From a virus: DNA of 64,000 nucleotides. The stretch is taken from positions 11,743 through 75,742 of the IMG/VR virus record IMGVR_UViG_3300045996_003052; one strand, 5' to 3'. Made by a program: the position numbers and the translations under genes. Shown here piece by piece: positions 1 through 30,786 of the stretch; position 1 is the first letter of the stretch, and every line of letters begins with the position of its first letter. The notes beneath the pieces are model-generated. The model was not told where the DNA came from. It saw nothing but the letters and a program-made list of their open reading frames with translations, and did no database searches.

Positions 1-69
1 CGCCTTAGGCGGTAGCGGAGACCATCACCCCGAGGTATTCGGGGCGACACACGGTAGCCGATTTGACTG

Positions 70-98
70 ACTATATCACGGGCAATTTTGGTTGTACA
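70..98 (-). promoter_or_regulatory. Leftward promoter (TGTACAACC class)
   Basis: The minus strand reads TGTACA-ACCAAAATTGCCCGTGA(17)-TATAGT, with the same TGTACAACC start as the minus-strand promoters at 14447-14475 and 57218-57246. Confidence 0.55.
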
Positions 99-274
99 AT
101 CCGATTATTAAAATTTTTCCCCCCGGGATTCTCTCTGCCCGATTTGGCTTTTTCGTTCCCCTGGGGATGTAGGGGGCAACAGTCCCAAAAGTAAAAATTA
201 GTTGGATGTACAACAAAAATTTAATCATAAATTTATATTATCAAATCATAAAAAACATTTATGAACGATTTTTG

Positions 275-302
275 TTGCAATACATATTGAAAAATGTAGA
301 AT
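275..302 (+). promoter_or_regulatory. Sigma70-type early promoter with AT-rich UP region
   Basis: TTGCAA-16 nt-TAGAAT preceded by long A/T tracts, upstream of the first + strand gene. Confidence 0.55.
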
Positions 303-322
303 AGTCATGTAAGTAAATTGTG

Positions 323-738
323 TTCTTTGAAAATTAAATAAAACCGATATGACTTTTTCCGTGTGGAGAATAACATGGCAAAAGCTAGATTATATGCATA
401 TAACCCTGACGCGGTAAAAAATGGTGACGCAAAATTGCGCCGCTATGTTGGAGAATTAAAGGGTCAAGCAAAAGTAGTGCTTGACGAACTCCGACGAAAT
501 TTGAAACCACGTCTTGCTGTTGAAATTGAAAAAACGACACCGTTTTTCGAAACCCGTCAAGAGCGATTTCGCGTAGTTCTGTATTACATTCTTGTTTTTA
601 AATCAAAGGGGATTATTTCTACGTATGACCCAGACGTAGAAAACGAAGATGAAAATGCGTTCGCAGGTTTGATTCCAACCGACGAAAACTAAAAAATCAA
701 AATCTTTGTCATATCGGTTTTATTTAGTTTTCAAAGAA
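323..738. repeat. 31-bp inverted repeat (323-353 / 708-738) flanking ORF 375-692; the left arm starts with a boxA-like GTTCTTTGAAAA
   Basis: ttctttgaaaattaaataaaaccgatatgac versus the reverse complement of gtcatatcggttttatttagttttcaaagaa: 30/31 identical, and the mismatch is a U-G pair in RNA. Confidence 0.95.
375..692 (+). CDS. Winged-helix-like DNA-binding protein, paralog 1
   Basis: GGAG RBS before ATG 375. Motif KGQAKVVLDEL...RQERFRVVLYYILVFKSKGII is shared with 13419-14015 and 28493-28861. Confidence 0.7.
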   Translation: MAKARLYAYNPDAVKNGDAKLRRYVGELKGQAKVVLDELRRNLKPRLAVEIEKTTPFFETRQERFRVVLYYILVFKSKGIISTYDPDVENEDENAFAGLIPTDEN

Positions 739-749
739 AGGAAAAAAAA

Positions 750-875
750 ATGTTAAAAATTACTGATTTTATTCGTGAGATTTCAATTCAGATTTTTGGT
801 GAAGGAAATCGAATTGATGATTTTCTTTGTCAGTGGCAATCAACCCATTATTTTGGAGGTAAAATTATTTATTAA
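750..875 (+). CDS. Small hypothetical protein (41 aa)
   Basis: AAAGGA RBS; MLKITDFIREISIQIFGEG...KIIY*; below the ORF-track cutoff. Confidence 0.5.
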   Translation: MLKITDFIREISIQIFGEGNRIDDFLCQWQSTHYFGGKIIY

Positions 876-1288
876 AAAATAAAAACATGGCTTAATTTCC
901 CACCAACTAGCCTGCCCCGCACCCCGGGCACCGCGCCCGGGGTCCCACCACCGACCCGTGGGCGGGGGCCGGCCCGGGTACTAGGGTCGAGGTAAGGAGC
1001 GAGGTATGAATCTCACTGTGAACGGCAAGGTCTGGGCCATCGCGTGGATCGAGGTCGGCGGCTACTGGGAGGCCCGCTGCGGGCACAGGGTCCTCGAAAC
1101 GTACACCATCGAGGAACTGTGTTACCTTCTTCCCCGCACGTACGTCGCCACGGAGAACTGAGATGACCGGGACCAAGAAACTGTGGTGTTGGAAATGCCG
1201 CGTGGAGCGCTGGATGGTCTGGCGCGCGGGGCTGGCTCGGTGTTATGAGTGCCTGCATTGCGGGCGGATGACGAGGGGGTAGCCAAGC

Positions 1289-1495
1289 ATGACGGTACGG
1301 TTCGAAATGTACAACGGGTCCGATACAGATAACAGGGGCTGGACGGAGTACGTAATCTACGACGTGCGTTCCCTGTACTACGACCGCAACGACGCCTGGA
1401 CGCTGCGTATTTCGGGCGTCTGGCCTTGGACTGGGAAAGAGGAACAGAGTACGTTCTTCTACAACCCGGTGCGTAACGTGCAAGTCGGGGACTAG
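1289..1495 (+). CDS. Hypothetical early protein
   Basis: GAGGGGG RBS; followed by a strong hairpin. Confidence 0.6.
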   Translation: MTVRFEMYNGSDTDNRGWTEYVIYDVRSLYYDRNDAWTLRISGVWPWTGKEEQSTFFYNPVRNVQVGD

Positions 1496-1512
1496 AGTCC
1501 CCGACTTGCACG
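1477..1512. terminator. Perfect hairpin with 17-bp arms
   Basis: cgtgcaagtcggggact-ag-agtccccgacttgcacg over the stop codon of 1289-1495; no U-tract. Confidence 0.55.
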
Positions 1513-1801
1513 GGGTGGTAACCTAGGTAGATCCGCAGCGCGTAATTTGCGCGGGCCGCGCCCTGAAGTCTGCGTTCTGAAACGCCATACTTCGGAAATT
1601 AACCGGCATGCCCAAGTAAACCTGGTCATGGTTTTCGGAAATTAACTACCACGCCGTTGGGCCCTCGAACGGGATATTGGGAAACGATGTCGGAAACAAT
1701 TTAACCCGCCGTGTCATTTCGATGTTCTCTTCGGGAAATAATGAGTATATAATATTCATGATGAGAAATTTATCTCACTTAATTAATCACGGAGGAAAAA
1801 C

Positions 1802-2005
1802 ATGGCAAACAGAAACGTGGCAGAGATCCTAAAAATGACGATCAGACAACCGCTTGCGCGGTTGTCGGAAAGCGAGGCTGCGGAACGGGCCGAGCGGCTA
1901 CGATTAGCCGGCCACGGGTTCTCGACCGCGAGGCCCCAGAGCGAAACTCCTAAATTTCAGGAGTTCCGCAAAGACTGGCAACGCATGATGGTGCGGGAGG
2001 AATAA
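1802..2005 (+). CDS. Hypothetical early protein
   Basis: TATAAT at 1748-1753 and GGAGG RBS. Confidence 0.7.
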   Translation: MANRNVAEILKMTIRQPLARLSESEAAERAERLRLAGHGFSTARPQSETPKFQEFRKDWQRMMVREE

Positions 2006-2006
2006 C

Positions 2007-2327
2007 ATGGATACCAAGAACCTCGATGATCTTCTAGAAAGCGGGGAACCTATCATGGTCGGCGACATCGAATTCACCTCGGCGGGTTTTCTGGATTACG
2101 GAAACAACGACTGTTGGGAGGTTCTCACCCCGAAGGTCCGGCCAGCTAACGCCGACGGGAACTTCGTTGAGTCCAACTACGACGTCTACTTCATCGAACA
2201 CCAGGACTACCCGCACCAACTGACCGCTCGCGGTCAGTTTCTTGCGCAGGTGCCTGACCAGCACCTCAACACCGTGATCATTCAACTCGGCCAGGTCCTG
2301 GCCGAGTACGACAAGGAAGGTGCCTGA
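2007..2327 (+). CDS. Hypothetical early protein
   Basis: GGAGGA RBS; abuts the previous gene. Confidence 0.7.
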   Translation: MDTKNLDDLLESGEPIMVGDIEFTSAGFLDYGNNDCWEVLTPKVRPANADGNFVESNYDVYFIEHQDYPHQLTARGQFLAQVPDQHLNTVIIQLGQVLAEYDKEGA

Positions 2328-2559
2328 CCATGGACCTCGTCATTGGGTTCGTATTCCTGTTCTGTGGGCTCGGTCTCCTTCTTGGGACCGGGCCCCGCCG
2401 TAAGGGCTGGGGCCGGAAGCGCCGGCGCGGCAGCGGGGGCACTAGCATGAAGATGTCCTCGTACCGAAGCACCAAGTCGCGGGGTAAACCGCGGCCAGGA
2501 AACTAACTAGTGGGTAGGGCCCAAATGCGGGGTATCAGGAAACGCACGCCGGACCAATT

Positions 2560-3222
2560 TCACGTTTCCTGGTGCCCCGGCTCATCATTCGAGGCGTTTT
2601 TATCGCCAAATTCATCGCTTTTGGGCTCGCTGGAGGTCCCTGGGTCGCCATTTTCCGCGGATTGCGGCGCGGGAAACACGGGCCGGGCTACGTCTTTCAC
2701 CGCATTTTCTACGACTTGCCCCTCTAGGACTGCGTCGAACGGTGACCTCTCGAGCAATCTTTTGTCCACAGGGTGGCCTGCGGCGGCCAATCTTTCTAGT
2801 AAGGCGCGTGTCTTTTTATATACCTCGACATCAGGTAGGGCGCGCTTATCGTCGACTTCGACCTTGTGCATCGAGGCCGCGTTCAAACCAAGCAGCTTGG
2901 CCCGGCGCTCACAGAGCCGAATAAACGTGTCAACGTGCTCGAGCGAGCCGGCCTCAGCCTTGTCAGCCACAGCTTGGATCAAGCGATCAAGCCGAGCGAG
3001 CTCAAGTTCTAAAACCTGGCCTGCCTCCGCGGCCCGCAGGCGTGCCATTTTTTCAAGTTCTTGGTTCACGTACTTGTGCGCGGTGCCCAAAGAAACGCCA
3101 AGCGTGTCAGCGATGTCTGAATATGAGTATCCCTTTCGTCGTAACTCCAGCGCCTTTCGTACCACTTGGGGTAATTGCTCAGGGGTCCAAACGCGAATTC
3201 CCGGCTCGTTATGTGCGACCAT
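2560..3222 (-). CDS. terS: HTH protein, probable terminase small subunit
   Basis: N-terminal HTH (ELRRKGYSYSDIADTLGVSLGTAHKY) followed by LELARLD...AGS...VD...ERRAKLLGL, a pattern typical of HTH-type TerS proteins. Confidence 0.6.
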   Translation of the reverse strand: MVAHNEPGIRVWTPEQLPQVVRKALELRRKGYSYSDIADTLGVSLGTAHKYVNQELEKMARLRAAEAGQVLELELARLDRLIQAVADKAEAGSLEHVDTFIRLCERRAKLLGLNAASMHKVEVDDKRALPDVEVYKKTRALLERLAAAGHPVDKRLLERSPFDAVLEGQVVENAVKDVARPVFPAPQSAENGDPGTSSEPKSDEFGDKNASNDEPGHQET

Positions 3223-3804: not shown

Positions 3805-4266
3805 ATGATGAAACGCATAGATAAAACGGTTGAACAGATTAACTTAATCAATTATGGTAGGTTTGAACGCCGACTCGGCGCCTTCTTCGTCTCAGGAATC
3901 TCTTTAGATTTCCTGATAAGCGAGGCACTCGAAAAAGGCCGTGAAAGTCGATGCTGGGTGTGGAAGTCCACCCTAGCAAAGCGCGGGAACTACGTGCTTC
4001 CTATGTTGAAGATCATCAACCCATATACTAAGAAGGATGAAAACGTCTATGCTAGACGATTTGCCCGCTTTCTTACCTTCAAAGCCTATCCGCCAGTTGG
4101 GGCGTGGTTGGTACTTACATGCGGTGAGGAGAAGTGCGTTAACCCAGTTCATTGCATTGTAAGTGACGCTGAAAATTGGCACGCCGACAAGATGCAAGCG
4201 GTAATTACCGACCCTGTATTTGCCGCAGAAATTGCTGCCGCCGGAAAGAAGCAGGAGAACAGGTAA
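3805..4266 (+). CDS. HNH-fold protein, probably catalytically degenerate
   Basis: CWVW...YARR...VLTCGEEKCVNPVHC resembles the HNH_3 pattern VLHxCDNxxCVNPxHL but lacks the first His and the final Asn. Leaderless from promoter 3769-3797. Confidence 0.55.
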   Translation: MMKRIDKTVEQINLINYGRFERRLGAFFVSGISLDFLISEALEKGRESRCWVWKSTLAKRGNYVLPMLKIINPYTKKDENVYARRFARFLTFKAYPPVGAWLVLTCGEEKCVNPVHCIVSDAENWHADKMQAVITDPVFAAEIAAAGKKQENR

Positions 4267-4600
4267 TGTTAAAAGTTACTTTGATAACCAGTCCCTTCAT
4301 AGATGAATTTTTAAAAACTCGTTTCTCACGTGCCGGCTACGCTAACATATTCGACAACGTGCTGTCGGTCGAAACCAACGATATCCACATCATATTGACC
4401 GTGCTCAGGGAAGACAAAAAACATATCCCGCCACACCCAGATGAAGTTTCTACCGAAGCTGCCAGACTCACCTACCAGCCAAAATTCATCTCATATGGTT
4501 GGAAGCAGGTAGTCCTTAACCTAGAACGGCGGTTCTTCCTAGACACATTTAAGGTAGAACGTATGGAGTAACAATGTACTCGGCTCGAGGCACATTGTTA

Positions 4601-4630
4601 TTTACTTTCGCACCCCGGATGTTATATAAT
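4601..4630 (+). promoter_or_regulatory. Phage early promoter
   Basis: TTTACT-18-TATAAT; near-identical copy at 8060-8089; preceded by hairpin 4571-4599. Confidence 0.75.
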
Positions 4631-4678: not shown

Positions 4679-7600
4679 ATGGCAATCGTCTACTTTGAAG
4701 TCGAGCCGGAGAGATTAAAGGAAACCGAGGAGTTCGTAGAGAAACGAGGAGGTAAGCTGTACCACAGCAGCAAGGTCCCGGTGACCCTGGCTACCCAGTC
4801 AGACGAGGCCCTCGAAACCATCCTGTCCGATCTCGGGTTCACCCACGAGGACCTGGAGGACGGTAGGGTCGAGCGGTATAAAACCGGTGAAGAGCGCCTC
4901 CTCGAGGAACTTAACGCCGACGACCCCGACAACGAGGTGTCCTACATGCAGGCCAGGCTCCTGGCCATCAGCCAAAAGCTTGGCGAGTGGCGCGAGTCCG
5001 CCAAGCGCCTCGAGAAGCTCGGTGACCCCCTCTCGCCTAAGGACGTCGCGAAGATCGAGTCCATCGACACACACGCCCTTCAGCTACGCGAGGAGCTTAG
5101 CGGGTTGTTTACTTGGAACGGCAACTTCGCAAGGAGGTAAAGCATGGCAACAGACAAGCAGCGCGAGGTCGCCCGTAAGCTCCTCGAGGAAGACCTCCAG
5201 GATTTTGGCGGGTACATCTGTCTCGATGAAGACTGTGAACGTACCGTTCACGTCACGGTAAGGTGCACGGCCAAGGAGTTCATGGAGTTCTGCGACCAAC
5301 TAATCAAGGGGTTCCCTGAATTTACTGACGAGTTACTTCCCTGTGACGACAACAACTTCTGGGGCTGGACGGTCGAAGACATCTGCGAAAACCTATTCGA
5401 ACTCCACCCCGAACAGGCCGCTAAACTCTATCCCGAAGCACTGTAGAGGAGGAAAACATGGCAAAGCGTATGTTCAACGTAAGCGTCGACATCGAAATCG
5501 ACACGGAGACAGAAAACACGGGAGCGGATCTTGCCGCCAACGTTATCGCGCTCGGGCTCGATAACGCGATAGGCGGTGCCAATGGAGTTCTGGGGTACGA
5601 CCTCGAGGTCATGTGGGTCTACTCAGACCCCCACGGTGAGGATGAGGAAGGCGGCCACGAGCCAGAAAGAGTGGTGACGCGTGTCAGCTACTAACAAGAT
5701 CACCTGGCCAGCCTACAAGATCACCGAGACGCGGTCCGTCAACGTGCCGAGCTACCAAGGGCTCGCGTGCGAGGACTGCGACGGAAACTCGGGCCGCTGG
5801 CGTACCTACAACATCGCGGACCTAATCTTTGACAGTCCTGGTAGAACTTACCGGGTCTGTCAAGAGTGCGCGTGGGTTAACCACGGCGTCCTGGTCGCGC
5901 CGGTCTACAACGAGGAGGTTCTATGACTGCGGAACAAAAGGCGAAGGTTCGAGAACTTGCCGCGCGGCACAACCAACACCCCCAAAAGGGGGTCGGTATT
6001 AATGTCCAGGTAACGTGTCAGGTACACTCCGCCGTCTTATTCTTCGGTCTGTCTGAGGCAGACCTAATGGGTCTGACGGACGAGGAGTTCAACCAACTGT
6101 GCTTTGAGACGGCCCAGGACCCATATACCCAGGTCTGTGAGGGGACGTTGGACATGAAGCACGACGCCGAGTTCGTCAACCGGCGAGATTACGACGAGGA
6201 GGAATATTGATGCTTGAAGTCCCGGATTACCCCAACCAGGTCGACTGCGACGATTGCGGCGACCCCATCATCACCCGGTCGGAGACGGACTCCGACATCT
6301 ACGCCGACGACAGCACAGACACGCTGTGTCGCCGGTGCTACGTTGAAAACTACCTGCAGCGCATCATGGAGGCCGTGTACGTGCTGCGGGAGATTGACGT
6401 CGACACTATCCCGCTGCAGTCAGCGGTCGGGAACGTGCGCGACGAGGAGGACATCCGCTCATGATCACTAGTAAGTCAGTTCGTGTTAGTGGCAAGGGCC
6501 AGACGGTCAACTTCGTGGAAAGTCTTTGGTACCAGGACAGTACCGACGCCGTCCACGTCCTTCGCGTTAAAATCCACAACGACAGCTACCGTGACCAGTC
6601 GTGGGGCAAGGTAGAGCGGTGGGACGGCACGCAGTGGCACGAGGTCGCGTCCATCAACGGCGCGGAATTTAGCATGGAGCTTGGTATCGGTTACAAGCCG
6701 CGAACTATCACCGCCGCCGACTTTTGGCAGGACCGCGACCACCTGCTGCAGCTCGCCCAGGAGGTGCTGCTAGGATGACAGTCACGTTGATTACCAAAGA
6801 CGGTAACGCCGTCGTCTACAACCACGTCGTCGCGATCGAACACGACGATCGGACCATTACAGTAACGCTGCCACGCGGTGTCTTCCACGTAGCGCCGCGT
6901 CAGTTCTATGAGGATACGTACTATGTGGACTAAGGAGGACTTCTAATGGCGAACCTATATAAGGCCGACGGCACGGTGTCCGTCGTGACCCCCTCAAAGG
7001 GGTCGCGATGGACGCTTGGTGAGCTCCAGGGACACGTTGGTGGGTGCATCGAGCTGATGCCCGGCCTGCGAAAAGTCCGCGTCATTATGAACCAGGAGGC
7101 CGCCCTCCGTGGACTGCCGGTCAACCGGCGAGCCACGGACCTCGTTTTGGAGCTCTTAGCCACCACCCCGGCACCGCTGAGGTACGTGCCGGTAATTCGC
7201 GGCGACGTCCTGGTGCTCACGCCAGGGGAGAGGATGTAGGTTCGTGATACAAACAAACCTGCTTGGCCGGTACGTCATCGATGCAGGCGAAAGTGATAGG
7301 GCTCCCAGGCACGAGGTCGTTGGTGTTTTCATCGAGGACGGTGTACCGGTGCTGATACTTATGACTTCTAACGGGTACCTAATGACGGAAATCGCTAGCC
7401 GGAATCGCGTGGTTCCGCTGCGGGAGGTGACGGGTGAAGAGCAGAGATGAAGACCACCCACGTCGCACTGACCTACTTCAGGAAGACCGGCAAGTACTAC
7501 GCCGGTGGCGAAATCGACTTACCGTACAATGTCGATAAGCCGTTGATGTTCCACGAGACGCTTCAGCAGGTCGTAGACCTGCTGAACAGCGGGCAACGCC

Positions 7601-10366: not shown

Positions 10367-13291
10367 ATGTCCATCAATGAAAAGCGGTTGACTGAGGTGC
10401 TTGATGCGTGGCAACGTCTACGCGATAAGGCCCATGATCGTAACCTCAACCTAATAGTTGGGGAGGTGGCGCTTCTCGTGTTGGCCGCGGCGGTACACGA
10501 GCTCGATGACTCATTGTCAGTATATTTACCGAATGCCGGCCGTGGCGATTAACGAGGAGGTTCCCAAGTCACCGGCCCACGATGAAGAGGCCGAAGGCCA
10601 GCCGGCGTGGCCGGCGGACTTCGACCAGTACGAGGTACCATACAACTACGACAACGAGCTACCTGATGGCGAGGAGCTCATCGAACGGCGGAAAGAGTGG
10701 GAGGGGGAGTAACATGGCAAATCAGGTAGAAGCGCTCCGGCAGGCTACGGCCTGCCTGGACGAGTACGAGCAAGAGCTTCGAAAGCGAATCGAGCGGCTA
10801 AAGGACTTCAAGGCACTTCAGCAGATCGTCGTCGAGCTACTTCAGCGGTTCCCAGAGCCAATGGCAGGGGACGAGTTCTACAACTCACCTGAGGTACGTA
10901 CGAGTTTTAACCTGGATGCCGGTACCCACCAGGCACTTATGGTGAACCGCGACTGCAAGTCGATCCAAGAGGTCATAGAACCGCTACGCTTTCTACGAAA
11001 GCGGCTGGGAAAGTACGAGGTCACGGACGACCCCGACTTTAAGCGGCGGATCTACAAATTCAACGTCGACGGCTGTGCCTTGGTCTTCCAGGCATTCTTT
11101 TGGGCTAGTGAGGACCAGCTTTGCAAGTACGTCCAGATCGGCGTCAAGGAGGAGCCGGTGTTTAAGCTGCGGTGTGCCGGCCAGGAGGTGACGGATGAGG
11201 TTTCCTGACGGCTCAGCCGTGCGGCGAGGTGCTGGGCTACGACAACGGGGTCTACCTAGTCAGCATCTTTGAGGAGTACCGCGAGGCGGATGACGTGGAC
11301 GGCCTCGTGGAGGTGCCGCCTGAACAGCTTGAACTGCTTGACGAGGAAGACTTCGCAGACTGGAGTGAATGATGAAACCAACTCGTGAACAAGTACAACA
11401 GTTCGTCGACGACGCGGCGGCCGACGGCTGGCAGGTTAAGGCGATATACCGTAACGATTTGGGTGACATAAAGCTGTCGAGGGATGGCTTCATCGTACAC
11501 GCGTATCTCGATCCAAATCGTTTGGATTCTCGCACACCGCAGCTCTCGGCCTGGGGCCCGGACGGCCTGGCGATTTCCCCCGTGCCGATGCCATACAGCA
11601 TGACAAGGTTTCTAGAAACCTTGACGTATTGCAGCCACTGTGGTGCCAAAGGCGTCGAGACCTTCAGGTACAGTTTCGCCGGCCGGGCTTGCTCTCAATG
11701 TTTACCGGCACTGAAGGCGGAGCACGAGAAGCCGGGGTGGACTAACTAATTATGAAACCAATAAATGAGTGCAAGACCGTCCGCGAGCTGCTCGCTGGCG
11801 AATCTCGCTGGACGACTCGGTACTACGCGCGGGACAACGGCGGCTACGGTATCTTTCCAAAAAGCACACACGCCGTATGTTTCTGCCTCTCTGGGGCAGT
11901 CCTTCGAATTTATGGTGAAGGCGAGGCGGCCTACGCCGTTAACGACCGTTTACTGGTGGCCATCCACAAACGTACACGTGAGGCTATAGGGGTCGCGACG
12001 TTTAATGATGTACACGGCTACAAGGCCGTCATGGCGGTGGTCAAGGAGGCCGGCGTTTAATGGCCACGCCTATGTTCCTTAGGTATGCCTAGGGATCCCT
12101 AGGCATAACCAAGTGAATACAAAGGCATGGTACGTGATAGTAACGATAACGTACCCGCTTAATTTCAAAGGGGAGGTGTAGGGCATATGGGCTGTGACAT
12201 CCACATTGCGATTCAACGCCAAGAAGGCGACGGTACGTGGCGCGAGGTCATCTACCAAGACGAACTGTATGATTTTCAGAAAGAGCAGGGAGATAAGCCA
12301 GTTGACGGAATTCCCGTCGCGCCTCGGGTATTCCACGGGCGTAACTACGACCTGTTTGCTATCCTCGCCAATGTCCGCAACGGTCGAGGTTTTGCCGGCA
12401 TTAAGACGGGCGACGGTTGGCCGTCTATCGCGTCGGACCGGGGCTGGCCAAGCGACTTCATCGAGCCGGCGCCCAACCCAGCGTACCTAGAGGACGGGCC
12501 GCGGTACATGGGCGACCACTCGTTCACTTGGATCTCCCTTGACGAACTGAAGGCGTTTGACTGGGACGGGAACACGTCAACGCTTTGTGGCGTCGTTTCA
12601 GCAAAAGAGTATGAAAAGTTGAAGGGGGAGCCGCCAGAGTCGTATTGTGCCGGGGTCGATGGTCCTGGAATCTTTACGTACACTGAAAGTCAGTACCTTA
12701 ACGCGAAGCTACACGGTGCGCTAGCTCCCAAGCCGCACGTTAGGGTCGAGTGGCAAGAGTCGGCACGGTCAGCGACGTACGACTGGCCTGGCAAGGTTAT
12801 CCCGTGGCTTGAACAGCTCGCCGGCGGCCGTCCGCTCCGGCTTATCCTGGGGTTTGACAGCTAATGGTAAAGAAAGAATCAATTAGGGTACCACGAATGC
12901 TTCGGGTAGAGAGCATTATCTTTAAGCGTTCTCAAAAAAGCCCGGAGGAGGCCGGCCTCCTGATTAATGAGGGAGAGGGTCCGATCATCGACATGTTGGG
13001 GAAGGTGGTTCCTGCGCCAATTTGGAGCTGGAATCCTGACCACGAATTTACCTTCATCTACCGCCCACAGGACAGGAGGTTCAAATGACTACAAATGAAG
13101 TGAATAGGCCCACGGTGAAGCTCATCGGTGCCGACGGCAACGTCTTCAACATCCTCGGCCTCTGTATGAGGGCCGCCAGGAAGGCTGGGTGGCCAAAAAA
13201 GCGGGTCGACGAGTTCGTCGGCCGCTGTACCAGCTCCGGCAGCTACGACGCGGTCCTCGGCATCGTCATGGAAGAATTCGAGGTCGAGTAA
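10367..13291 (+). CDS. Cluster of hypothetical genes (10367-10552, 10714-11208, 11369-11749, 11752-12060, 12187-12864 MGCDIH-type phage protein, 12864-13088, 13085-13291)
   Basis: Co-directional ORFs with RBSs. MGCDIH...RNYDLFAILANVRN...FDS and LIGADGNVFNILG are recurrent phage hypothetical motifs. Confidence 0.65.
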
Positions 13292-13358: not shown

Positions 13359-13418
13359 AGTTCTTGAAGATTGAGCTTGACCACAATTTTTGTGGTCAAC
13401 AACAAGGAGGGTAGAAAA

Positions 13419-14015
13419 ATGGCAACAGTAAGACGGTACAGCGTTCACAAGGTGCCCGAAGACAAGGTGTTCAAGGGGCAGCCGAAGGTCATCATGGACC
13501 ACCTGGCGAAGCACCCGCGGTCAACCGTGGCCGAGATGGCGAAGGTCCTAACCTTCGAGGGGTCGCGGCAGGCGCCGGAACGTGTCATCGCGTTCTACAT
13601 GACGACCTTCAAGAAGACCGGCCTCGTCAAGGCCGAGGAAGAGGTCGTCGAGGACACAGCCGGTAAGGCCGCGGAGGCCGACTCTGGCGAGGAGGACGAG
13701 GCCGACGAGGACGAACAGGATGAAAACGGCGAGATCAACGAAGAGAGGCTACCCGTTGAGGAACGGGTAGCCTACCACGAGGAACTCTCTGCCGCCGAGC
13801 CGTCGCCTGGGGGCAAGTACGACGGCCTCAAGATGACCGAGGCAGTTTTACGGGTCCTTAAGTCCCGGAAAACTGCCAACGCGGAGGACATCGCCAAGTA
13901 CCTAGTAGAAAACGGGTACCAGGCGCAGCCGAAGCAGGTCACCGGCGCGCTCATCAACCTCATCAAGCAGGGGGTCGCGAAGAAAGGCGATCTCAATACC
14001 TACTCCCTCAAGTAG
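13419..14015 (+). CDS. Double winged-helix protein with acidic linker, paralog 2
   Basis: AAGGAGG RBS; KGQPKVIMDHL...RQAPERVIAFYMTTFKKTGLV; D/E-rich linker; second wHTH (EAVLRVLK...AEDIAKYL...VTGALINLIKQG). Confidence 0.75.
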   Translation: MATVRRYSVHKVPEDKVFKGQPKVIMDHLAKHPRSTVAEMAKVLTFEGSRQAPERVIAFYMTTFKKTGLVKAEEEVVEDTAGKAAEADSGEEDEADEDEQDENGEINEERLPVEERVAYHEELSAAEPSPGGKYDGLKMTEAVLRVLKSRKTANAEDIAKYLVENGYQAQPKQVTGALINLIKQGVAKKGDLNTYSLK

Positions 14016-28228: not shown

Positions 28229-28861
28229 ATGATAGAGTTACCTACATTGAGAGAGGGAATGTTGGTACGCTACCCAAATAATTCCATTTGGTATGTGGAC
28301 TACATCAGCCCCTCAGGCGCCTACGTCATACCCATCACTGGGTACGAGACGGAGATCGTCACATCTGCTCGCAAGGGACGAAAGCGAGCAGCTGTAGTGA
28401 AATATCCTGCTCCGCAGGTAATTTCACTACACTCCGTACTCGAGGTGCTTGACCCAACTTCCTTCAACGTGAAGGACATCATGAGGAGAGTTATGGCGAG
28501 AAAAGCAGCAAACGAAGGTGGCGTGGCGGAGATGGATCCGGGAGCAACGGTAGAAGGCGCGAAGGCGGAGCGGGCGCCACGCACCACGCAGAAGTACGTG
28601 CGCACGACAAAAGAAGCCAAGGAGATGCGCGGCCAGGGCCGCGTGGTCCTCGACTTCCTGAACGCGACGACTGAACCGAAGTCGGTCGCCGAGGTGACCG
28701 AAGCGGTCAAGGGCGCGATTGGCGGCAAGCAGGCGCCGGAGCGGGTGGTTGGCTACTACCTGACACGCTTCAAGCGCGATGGCCTGGTCAATGTCGTGAA
28801 GTCCGACGGCACGTCCACCCCAGGAGCTGGGGTGGAGGGCCTCGAGTCAGTAAACGCGTAA
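28229..28861 (+). CDS. Protein with C-terminal winged-helix paralog 3; internal in-frame start at 28493
   Basis: RGQGRVVLDFL...KQAPERVVGYYLTRFKRDGLV; GAGGAG RBS before ATG 28493. Confidence 0.7.
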   Translation: MIELPTLREGMLVRYPNNSIWYVDYISPSGAYVIPITGYETEIVTSARKGRKRAAVVKYPAPQVISLHSVLEVLDPTSFNVKDIMRRVMARKAANEGGVAEMDPGATVEGAKAERAPRTTQKYVRTTKEAKEMRGQGRVVLDFLNATTEPKSVAEVTEAVKGAIGGKQAPERVVGYYLTRFKRDGLVNVVKSDGTSTPGAGVEGLESVNA

Positions 28862-29505: not shown

Positions 29506-30786
29506 ATGTTAAACGAACAACCACAGCGAAGTAAGCGTGTCAGGGAAGACCGACGCTTCGACAAGACGCAGCTCAAGGCCGCTGGACACGGGAGGACTGT
29601 GAACCGAGATTACGGATCCCATGCCTTGCGGTGGAACTTTGTTGTTAATGAGGTAAACAAGCCTATGGAAGAAGCGTTAGGATTCTGGGCAGCTGGCCTT
29701 ATTGACGGCGAAGGCTGCTTCGACATCAGGGTCTCTCGAGAAGGTCGAAATTCACTACAGTTTATTTTTCAGCTAGGGTTACGAGCTGACGATGAAGAAA
29801 CTATAGAGCTTTTGCGCAACCTCCTGAAGGTTGGTAAGATTAGCGACCAACAAAACGAACGTATTACCAACGCCAAACCGATTAAAATGCTAACGGTTTG
29901 TAGTCTTGAAGATTGTCTTGTTCTCAGAGACTTCTTTCTCGACGCGCCGTTGCGTTCTAAGAAACGTTTCGACTTTGCAGTATGGGCTGAAGCGTTAACA
30001 GCCTTTGAAGTCCACAAGAAAACCAATTATCAGCTTACTGACGAGCTGATGTCGAAGATGGAAAACTACCAGAAGGAGTTAAGAGAAGGCAGAAAATTTC
30101 CATCAACCGCTCTTCCACCCAGGAAAGACTACATTAAGGATACTTTTCTACGTTGGGGCTGGGCAGCCCGACAAATCAAGCAGGGAGAGTCCATTCTCGA
30201 CGTAGGTTGTGGGCAAGATCAGCCGCTACTGTACGTTCTCGCTTCACGGAAACAAACCGTCCCCGACGTGTACGTTGGGGTCGATTTAAACCGGATCGTG
30301 AAGAAATCGGCCTGCAGGTGGGCCGACATTTACGACGAGTTCGACTTCGTTAACAACGGCAGGTGGCTGATCGACAACGAGAAGGGCTACACGCCCTTCG
30401 ACAAGGCGGTGTGCTTTGAGGTTATTGAACACATGGCTCCCGAAGACGGAATTAAGTTATTGGAAACCCTTCACTACTGCCTACGTCAAGGGGGTATTCT
30501 CTTCCTATCCACACCCGTGTTTGATGGTTATCGTGCCGCTAACCACATCCATGAGTACACCATCCCAGAACTCAGCGCTACGATTCAAAATTCAGGTTTT
30601 CGAGTTCAACGTCGAATTGGTACGTTTGCTTCTAAGCCTGAAATTCGACCGGTCTTAGATGAGCACGAGAGGGCTGTCTACGAACGGCTAGAGGAGTGGT
30701 TCGGCGGCGACGTCCTGTCGACGATCTTCGCATCCCTCCACCCTGACCAGAGCAGGAATAACCTCTGGGTTTGCGAGCGCGTATGA
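29506..30786 (+). CDS. Class I SAM methyltransferase with an in-frame LAGLIDADG endonuclease insert
   Basis: LAGLIDADG motif WAAGLIDGEGCF (insert ~29635-30145). MTase motifs ILDVGCG, CFEVIEHM, LRQGGILFLSTP. Promoter at 29442-29470. Confidence 0.85.
   Translation: MLNEQPQRSKRVREDRRFDKTQLKAAGHGRTVNRDYGSHALRWNFVVNEVNKPMEEALGFWAAGLIDGEGCFDIRVSREGRNSLQFIFQLGLRADDEETIELLRNLLKVGKISDQQNERITNAKPIKMLTVCSLEDCLVLRDFFLDAPLRSKKRFDFAVWAEALTAFEVHKKTNYQLTDELMSKMENYQKELREGRKFPSTALPPRKDYIKDTFLRWGWAARQIKQGESILDVGCGQDQPLLYVLASRKQTVPDVYVGVDLNRIVKKSACRWADIYDEFDFVNNGRWLIDNEKGYTPFDKAVCFEVIEHMAPEDGIKLLETLHYCLRQGGILFLSTPVFDGYRAANHIHEYTIPELSATIQNSGFRVQRRIGTFASKPEIRPVLDEHERAVYERLEEWFGGDVLSTIFASLHPDQSRNNLWVCERV

Follow-up and report, generated by a model that had tools for sequence, protein, structure and literature searches.

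The head of the rightward arm in an uncultured soil phage reads as a miniature imitation of a bacterial rRNA operon, in which the first gene would be expressed as a pseudo-16S precursor; the probability that we assign to this reading is roughly 0.6. At the level of sequence, the layout of the gene is equivalent to that of a 16S rRNA precursor, because a co-varying helix brackets the gene and a boxA is kept in five lineages, as in rrn operons. The phage thereby probably borrows the rRNA transcription and processing machinery of its host for its first message. The elements that make up this layout are as follows, with coordinates that refer to the window, i.e., the whole stretch of 64,000 nucleotides that was analysed.

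201-274, plus strand: A/T-rich stretch, a putative UP element (20% G+C in 201-300, in 100-nt windows)
275-302, plus strand: sigma70-type promoter-like site, TTGCAA-16 nt-TAGAAT, from a consensus scan (-35 at 275-280, -10 at 297-302)
321-333, plus strand: boxA-like element with core 322-333, GTTCTTTGAAAA, an exact pattern match about 12 nt into the predicted transcript
323-353, plus strand: 5' arm (leader strand) of the helix, from inverted repeat, fold and covariation
365-692, plus strand: RBS GGAG (365-368) and ORF 375-692, 105 aa with an acidic tail, from homologues, model and structural matches
708-738, plus strand: 3' arm (trailer strand) of the helix, from inverted repeat, fold and covariation
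739-875, plus strand: AGGA (739-742) and a 41-aa ORF (750-875), A/T-rich and lineage-specific, from the ORF list; a doubtful gene
841-958, plus strand: C-rich, G-poor stretch (C/G 2.2-2.6, composition only), extending into the untranslated gap before the next genes

Genomic setting

The IMG/VR genome comprises 75,742 bp, of which the window covers bases 11,743-75,742; it has 127-bp direct terminal repeats and a G+C content of 54%. The phage codes for a family-A DNA polymerase, a primase, helicases, a large terminase and a Mu-type portal and protease. Its closest cultured terminase is only 37% identical, and it has no near cultured relative: among 50,697 cultured phage records there was neither a near or distant DNA match nor a protein match to ORF 375-692. 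Relatives of this ORF are likewise absent from IMG/VR and from 185,579 species genomes, and the loci described below came from a metagenome scan alone.

A leftward operon lies upstream of the window, and a divergent promoter region separates it from ORF 375-692. From there (~375) to ~36.8 kb of the window, all clearly assigned genes but one run rightward. The first-pass annotation spoke of the first early gene, which holds in so far as the gene is the first of the rightward arm, beside the divergent leftward operon, though not the first of the genome, since the window starts at base 11,743. The leader of the leftward operon has no boxA-like site. Many more promoter-like sites are distributed along the rightward arm, together with only two strong terminator-like hairpins. 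The 75.7-kb genome has a single large low-GC island, at 109-908, where the G+C content falls as low as 24% in 200-nt windows.

Several other elements of the region deserve mention. A 47-nt block in the divergent intergenic region (137-183) is ~76-79% identical in loci L005-L010, within surroundings that cannot be aligned, and may be a clade-wide regulatory site or a small RNA. A search of positions 1-3000 against Rfam revealed no real family; the only weak Rfam-like match of the region is a perfect 17-bp palindrome with a 2-nt spacer (1477-1512), which overlaps the end of ORF 1289-1495 and is not followed by a T-run. On the minus strand, 2560-3222 codes for a 220-aa protein with an N-terminal sigma70 region-4-type HTH, found at the same place in L017 and L018; it matches PHROG 645, labelled 'RNase E', a label which is probably unreliable. 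An HNH endonuclease gene is located at 3805-4266, and in ORF 29506-30786 a LAGLIDADG endonuclease domain (residues 63-163) is joined to a class I methyltransferase domain (223-356).

Promoter-like site, boxA-like motif and long-range helix

The putative promoter with its 16-nt spacer and A/T-rich upstream DNA, as well as the 13-mer at 321-333, were described in the first-pass annotation and are present as described (consensus scan, G+C count), and a comparable promoter occupies the same place in the relatives. The promoter-like site and the boxA core are 19 nt apart, the latter in the sense orientation. The core is one position off the gammaproteobacterial consensus GYTCTTTAANA (PMC5725501). 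The window phage has no boxB-like hairpin at the boxA, no recognisable boxC and no second boxA past the helix, and two other boxA-like sites in its genome (14854 on the minus strand; 34603 inside the DNA polymerase gene) are at the level expected by chance.

The 5' arm begins ~20 nt past the promoter, within the boxA 12-mer. The two arms are 31 nt long and 354 nt apart, with 30 of 31 positions complementary, and the lone mismatch (U334.G727) forms a wobble pair in plus-strand RNA. They constitute the top long-range inverted repeat of the whole window, with a local-alignment score of 57 compared to a maximum of 26 in 30 shuffles. When the RNA of 309-770 is folded, the helix appears as the closing stem (MFE -131 kcal/mol, z = -6.5), and ORF 375-692 lies wholly in the loop together with its RBS. 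The earlier description of near-perfect 31-nt arms (within 321-738) whose loop is the entire winged-helix gene is thus borne out, as is the statement that the right arm reaches the RBS of the next gene: the arm ends at 738, directly followed by AGGA at 739-742 and an ATG at 750. The proposal that cleavage unmasks this RBS finds no support, since the RBS lies beyond the helix and ORF 750-875 is not conserved at the nucleotide level. A blastn comparison revealed no nucleotide-level counterpart in the relatives for the region 739-1010, which includes the 41-aa ORF, and this ORF has no family match.

A helix of 31 bp which joins the 5' and 3' flanks of a product falls within the range of ~25-40 bp that marks the leader-trailer helix of rRNA precursors. 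It is an imitation of such a helix and not a true member of the class, because its loop codes for a protein and contains no Rfam family (positions 1-3000).

The position of the motif raises the alternative of a boxA of the suhB 5' UTR type, whereby Nus factors near the start codon repress translation and promote Rho termination as a feedback. The end of the boxA is 41 nt before the ATG of ORF 375-692, inside the 50-nt range used for such sites (PMC5725501). Such a feedback would leave the conserved long-range helix unexplained, as well as the boxA of L013 and L017, located 128-162 nt before the start codon, and the first early gene behind a strong promoter would be an odd target for repression. 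This alternative is thus considered very improbable.

The enclosed gene and its putative winged-helix product

The gene within the loop is 318 nt long, and its GGAG lies 6 nt before the ATG. Homologues of its product (n = 15) share 47-69% identity with a strongly conserved core, and a profile search of 1.84 billion proteins retrieved 126 cluster representatives, most of ~100 aa and some forming a domain of ~200-aa proteins; by its sequence conservation, the ORF qualifies as a real gene. The AlphaFold model of the 105-aa protein (pLDDT 85) points tentatively to a winged-helix fold: its top structural matches are all winged-helix domains (Fur, ORC/Cdc6, MecI, ArsR, RRE), at Z scores of only 6-7 and Foldseek E-values of 0.2 or higher. 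The C-terminal tail is acidic and disordered, and includes a conserved short motif. No family or function was assigned to the protein by Pfam, PHROGs, NCBIfam, a PDB sequence search or the ESM Atlas.

Distant copies of the winged-helix domain were observed at 13476-13655 and 28622-28843, inside ORFs 13371-14015 and 28229-28861, which have neither flanking repeats nor a family annotation. In addition, a TATATAAT box and, after it, ATGAGAAAT lie within 1740-2005, an arrangement shared with the promoter of L007's second winged-helix copy, and ORF 1802-2005 has an RBS/start block that repeats the one of ORF 375-692 (direct repeat D1). This region may be a remnant or a replacement of a second cassette, here devoid of helix and boxA.

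Conservation of helix and motif among relatives

Relatives of the 105-aa protein are encoded in 16 metagenome loci, often as two to three paralogues per contig. Two of these loci, L007 and L017, are syntenic with the window phage: the proteins of the leftward operon share 60-80% identity, and the gene is again the first in the rightward direction. The gene family is bracketed by long helices of 25-45 nt, which differ in sequence from lineage to lineage.

L005-L010, copy 1: perfect helix of 34 nt (34/34); two subgroups differ at one position, which is altered on both arms
L007, copy 2: helix of ~35 nt
L009, copy 2: helix of 28-37 nt
L013: helix of 25 nt
L017: helix of ~45 nt
L018: G+C-rich helix of 31 nt
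L012, two copies: weaker repeats

Since the four more distant loci L011, L015, L016 and L019 yielded no helix, the helix is common in the family and not universal. Where it is present, the arms are always outside the ORF, in the untranslated regions, and leave 14-61 nt for a free RBS. RNAalifold recovered the same closing helix unaided from an alignment of 12 sequences. The cells of the helix are paired in 90.3% of cases, versus 32-46% when the partner is slid along the alignment, double changes are seen in 26 of the 31 pairs, and none of 500 shuffles reached the observed pairing. The covariation in related phages which had been suggested as a check is therefore in evidence.

A boxA-like motif, with at most one mismatch to the phage core, is found in 13 of 22 leaders, belonging to five lineages, against a background of 0.018 per 250 nt. 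It forms the start of the 5' arm in the window phage, in copy 1 of L005-L010 (where it is degenerate, with a C to A change at a conserved position) and in copy 2 of L007 and L009. In L013 and L017, the motif is located upstream of the arm and outside the helix (70-160 nt before the gene), and in L017 the intervening sequence contains a local hairpin. Motif and helix are thus two separately conserved features, because the motif is inside the arm in some lineages and upstream of it in these two. The more distant L011, L012, L015, L016, L018 and L019 lack the motif. In the copy-2 leader of L007, a perfect small 5' hairpin directly precedes the boxA, in the boxB-boxA order of rrn leaders (PMC13753749). 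A further observation concerns L017, where a motif containing TATATAAGACG forms a 23-nt inverted repeat (87%; 4582-4604 / 5050-5072) around ~445 nt; the second copies of L007 and L009 have a similar motif upstream.

These data also bear on a simpler explanation, whereby the helix stabilises or insulates the first message by pairing its 5' and 3' ends, or serves only as an RNase III site, while the likeness to boxA involves no role for Nus factors. Helix and covariation alike are strong, L018 and L012 possess helices but no boxA-like motif, and the terminator-like hairpin or T-run that closely follows the 3' arm in several relatives would fit a self-contained monocistronic unit. Yet the boxA-like motif persists despite divergence elsewhere in the arm, its position outside the helix in L013 and L017 argues for a function of its own, and it matches an 18-mer typical of rrn leaders. 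This explanation without a role for Nus factors is judged unlikely.

Comparison with bacterial rrn operons

Species genomes of many phyla yielded at least 120 exact matches to the 18-mer family common to the phage lineages. Among 82 genomic matches (80 loci), 25 are located in the sense orientation upstream of the 16S 5' end, at a distance of no more than 600 nt, 14 in the spacer before the 23S gene and six at contig ends; many of the remaining matches represent one repeated streptococcal element. By this distribution, the 18-mer family is a true rrn element, in line with the first-pass annotation, which recognised the motif as the boxA form of many bacterial rrn leaders. A near-identical stretch of ~57 nt that includes the boxA 18-mer was also observed away from rRNA genes in Streptococcus, Veillonella and Peptoniphilus genomes (loci L028, L034, L039, L043, L049, L053, L057, L083, L091, L092 and L095), and looks like part of a shared mobile element carrying a boxA-like signal.

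Leader-trailer pairing was searched in 13 rrn operons with a complete 16S gene. The boxA is inside the 16S leader-trailer helix in five of them (two from Acidobacteriota, two from Ca. Multivorans and one from Mycoplasmataceae), while the helix of the remaining eight begins beside the boxA or within ~20 nt after it (~20 nt in Mesorhizobium and Asaia). Compared at the sequence level, the two rrn layouts, with the boxA inside or before the helix, are the two layouts of the phage family.

The phage locus resembles an rrn operon in its strong promoter with an A/T-rich upstream region, and in a boxA variant that is the same as in many phyla. Its 31-bp helix is within the 25-40 bp of 16S leader-trailer helices, which co-vary (PMC10250234) as do the phage arms, and includes the boxA as in the operons examined from Acidobacteriota, Ca. 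Multivorans and Mycoplasmataceae. It differs from an rrn operon in that the loop is a translated gene with its own RBS and not rRNA, and in that neither boxB nor boxC was recognised, and no second boxA follows the helix, in the window phage. The earlier proposal that the phage mimics an rrn leader is supported in its core (the motif in real rrn leaders and spacers, the matching layouts, and the motif and co-varying helix kept in relatives); Nus-dependent antitermination and RNase III excision would be its putative consequences, and its RBS-unmasking part finds no support. The flank of the boxA gave no host assignment, as its best look-alikes come from several phyla; a match to the rrn boxA of the host itself is likely, because the variant is widespread across phyla.

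Other viral contigs and cultured phages

At least 118 IMG/VR contigs contain this 18-mer, which in none of them adjoins an rRNA gene. When a partner for the boxA region was sought with G.U-aware scoring, scores of at least 34 were reached downstream in 19 of 75 cases versus 4 of 55 upstream, and scores of at least 38 in 8 of 75 versus 0 of 55. Contig L195 combines a consensus promoter with a boxA inside a 26-bp helix and two small ORFs in the loop. Contigs L144 (3100-3146, minus strand) and L202 (boxA at 11193, reverse strand), both A/T-rich, have common boxA-containing arms and a common trailer flank around different cargo, a 67-aa zinc-ribbon-like ORF and a 159-aa ORF, and every mismatch in their helices is a sense-strand G.U. 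It is as if the helix were the border marker of an exchangeable cassette. To judge from these contigs, the boxA-helix architecture is present with other cargo in unrelated viruses.

The motif could also be viewed as an operator, whereby the winged-helix protein would bind the partly palindromic TTCnnnGAA core that flanks its own gene and thus regulate itself. The predicted fold, a winged helix, is one that many repressors share, and the repeat places the motif on both sides of the gene. However, unrelated cargo proteins are found with the same motif and layout, L013 and L017 have a single copy of the motif, outside the repeat, and arms of 31-45 nt are far longer than an operator. Autoregulation of this kind is accordingly given the slightest credence.

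Among cultured phages, the same design was observed in SP6, which carries two exact copies of the host-type boxA, at 656-667 and 926-937. Two nucleotides past the second copy, a 30-nt arm (940-969) pairs with 1491-1520 (97%, the sole mismatch being a sense-strand G.U) and encloses gp2-gp4. SP6 thus shares a boxA followed by a long-range helix around early genes; it differs in its enterobacterial boxA variant, which lies just before the arm and not inside it, and in its cargo. The first boxA copy of SP6 adjoins another long-range repeat, 656-689 / 905-934, around early genes. In a Streptococcus agalactiae phage, a Firmicutes-type motif is followed by a 15-nt arm with a partner ~350 nt downstream.

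T7 is likewise a virulent-type phage with early promoters (A1-A3) for the host polymerase and an rrn-type boxA before its first early gene: T7 813-824 is the exact enterobacterial boxA 12-mer, between promoter A3 and gene 0.3. RNase III processes the early messages of T7. Its RNase III sites, among them R0.3 in the early leader, are local hairpins between genes, whereas in the window phage a long-range helix encloses a gene and includes the boxA; judged from the sequences, the design is only partly present in T7. The nut sites of lambdoid phages also place a boxA in an early phage leader, where it recruits host Nus factors. In contrast to these, the window phage has no boxB hairpin at its boxA, no N-like protein was recognised in it, and its motif has the rrn consensus form, that of lambda being weaker.

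A search of the full-text literature, the scope of which did not extend to the SP6 genome papers, found no published description of a leader-trailer mimic in a phage. As far as has been searched, two kinds of leader are known already, that of rrn antitermination and processing and the early leader of the T7 type, and what is new is the layout in an uncultured soil-phage clade with a non-enterobacterial boxA.

A signal in RNA or in DNA

Long inverted repeats around a short segment may also act at the DNA level, as the boundary of cassette-exchange recombination, as an invertible switch or as the ends of a small mobile element. An inverted repeat would be expected to co-vary just as well if it acted in DNA, the locus is an A/T-rich island in a genome of 54% G+C, and L144 and L202 combine common arms with different cargo. 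Among the transition mismatches within the helix in this gene family, three are G.U and three are A.C, and an alignment-based count in the same family gave 6 versus 3 for the two kinds. The wobble evidence is therefore neutral within the family, which leaves some room for a role of the DNA. Across all loci pooled, however, the mismatches lean to sense-strand G.U (24 vs 11, p = 0.04).

Several further observations speak against the action of the repeat in DNA. The ORFs tested within 5 kb include no recombinase or transposase family, as had been remarked in the first-pass annotation, and the inversion and MITE alternatives raised there thus find no support. The flanks contain no target-site duplication, the arms have no match in the 75.7-kb genome apart from each other, and two paralogous copies in one phage have diverged, not identical, arms. 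All six contigs with the first copy and all three with the second show a single orientation, although this is a weak test. The segment resembles the Gin/Hin/Cin invertible segments and MITE-like elements in having ~30-nt inverted repeats on either side of a short segment; it differs from them by the lack of a recombinase, a target duplication or a second copy, by its one orientation and by the differing arms of its paralogues. A DNA-level role is accordingly held to be rather improbable. The sequence evidence favours the RNA level: the boxA is always in the sense orientation closely past a promoter, the motif is kept outside the repeat in two lineages, the arms are in untranslated regions, and real rrn operons offer an exact parallel.

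A model for expression of the first gene

Returning to the imitation of an rRNA operon as the preferred reading, the following course of events may be envisaged. A host-type promoter with its A/T-rich upstream region would start a transcript with an rrn-type boxA in its first ~25 nt. The same boxA would open the 31-bp leader-trailer helix, which closes around the 318-nt gene as the 16S stalk does around 16S rRNA. NusB-NusE would bind the nascent boxA and promote the assembly of an rrn-type antitermination complex (NusA, NusG, SuhB, S4) on the host RNA polymerase. By holding the 5' arm near the RNA exit, this complex may allow fast, Rho-resistant transcription and favour the pairing of the 3' arm upon its emergence. 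The duplex would then either be cut by RNase III or protect both ends, yielding a stable monocistronic mRNA that codes for the winged-helix protein and whose RBS stays free in the loop. The polymerase would continue through the C-rich untranslated gap (841-958), a possible Rho loader, into the next early genes; the view of this stretch as a candidate Rho loading zone is speculation based on its composition. Transcription from the promoter at 275-302, Nus binding, antitermination and RNase III cleavage are all candidate functions, which we infer from the arrangement of these elements.

The antitermination part of the model faces several objections. Once paired, the boxA would be sequestered, such that Nus binding could end after one gene, and this consideration, together with the lack of a second boxA, the many further promoter-like sites downstream and the presence there of only two strong terminator-like hairpins, weakens the case for it. 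Antitermination over a long range is not obviously needed, because the rightward arm has these additional promoter-like sites.

Implications

The rRNA antitermination complex is viewed as dedicated to rRNA, with few other clients, such as suhB and CRISPR arrays, and the leader-trailer helix is seen as a device for ribosome assembly. The boxA is described as acting outside rrn operons as well (PMC5725501). If the reading of the locus as a pseudo-rRNA precursor is true, promoter style, boxA and closing helix would be portable as one package, and phages would use it for a quick and stable first product. The soil-phage clade would then extend the module beyond enterobacterial phages to a host with a GTTCTTTGAAAA-type boxA. 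A broader generalisation, which we advance tentatively and at somewhat less than even odds, is that phages infecting hosts of many phyla express their first genes as pseudo-rRNA precursors by means of an exchangeable cassette of host-matched boxA and helix, which would hijack both the rRNA antitermination complex, for fast and Rho-proof RNA folding, and RNase III, for excision.

Because the layout is also present in SP6, the idea is directly testable in Salmonella or E. coli. A boxA followed by a helix arm with its partner a few hundred nucleotides downstream would provide a signature for early genes in uncultured phages, and the variant of the boxA may serve as a handle on their host range.
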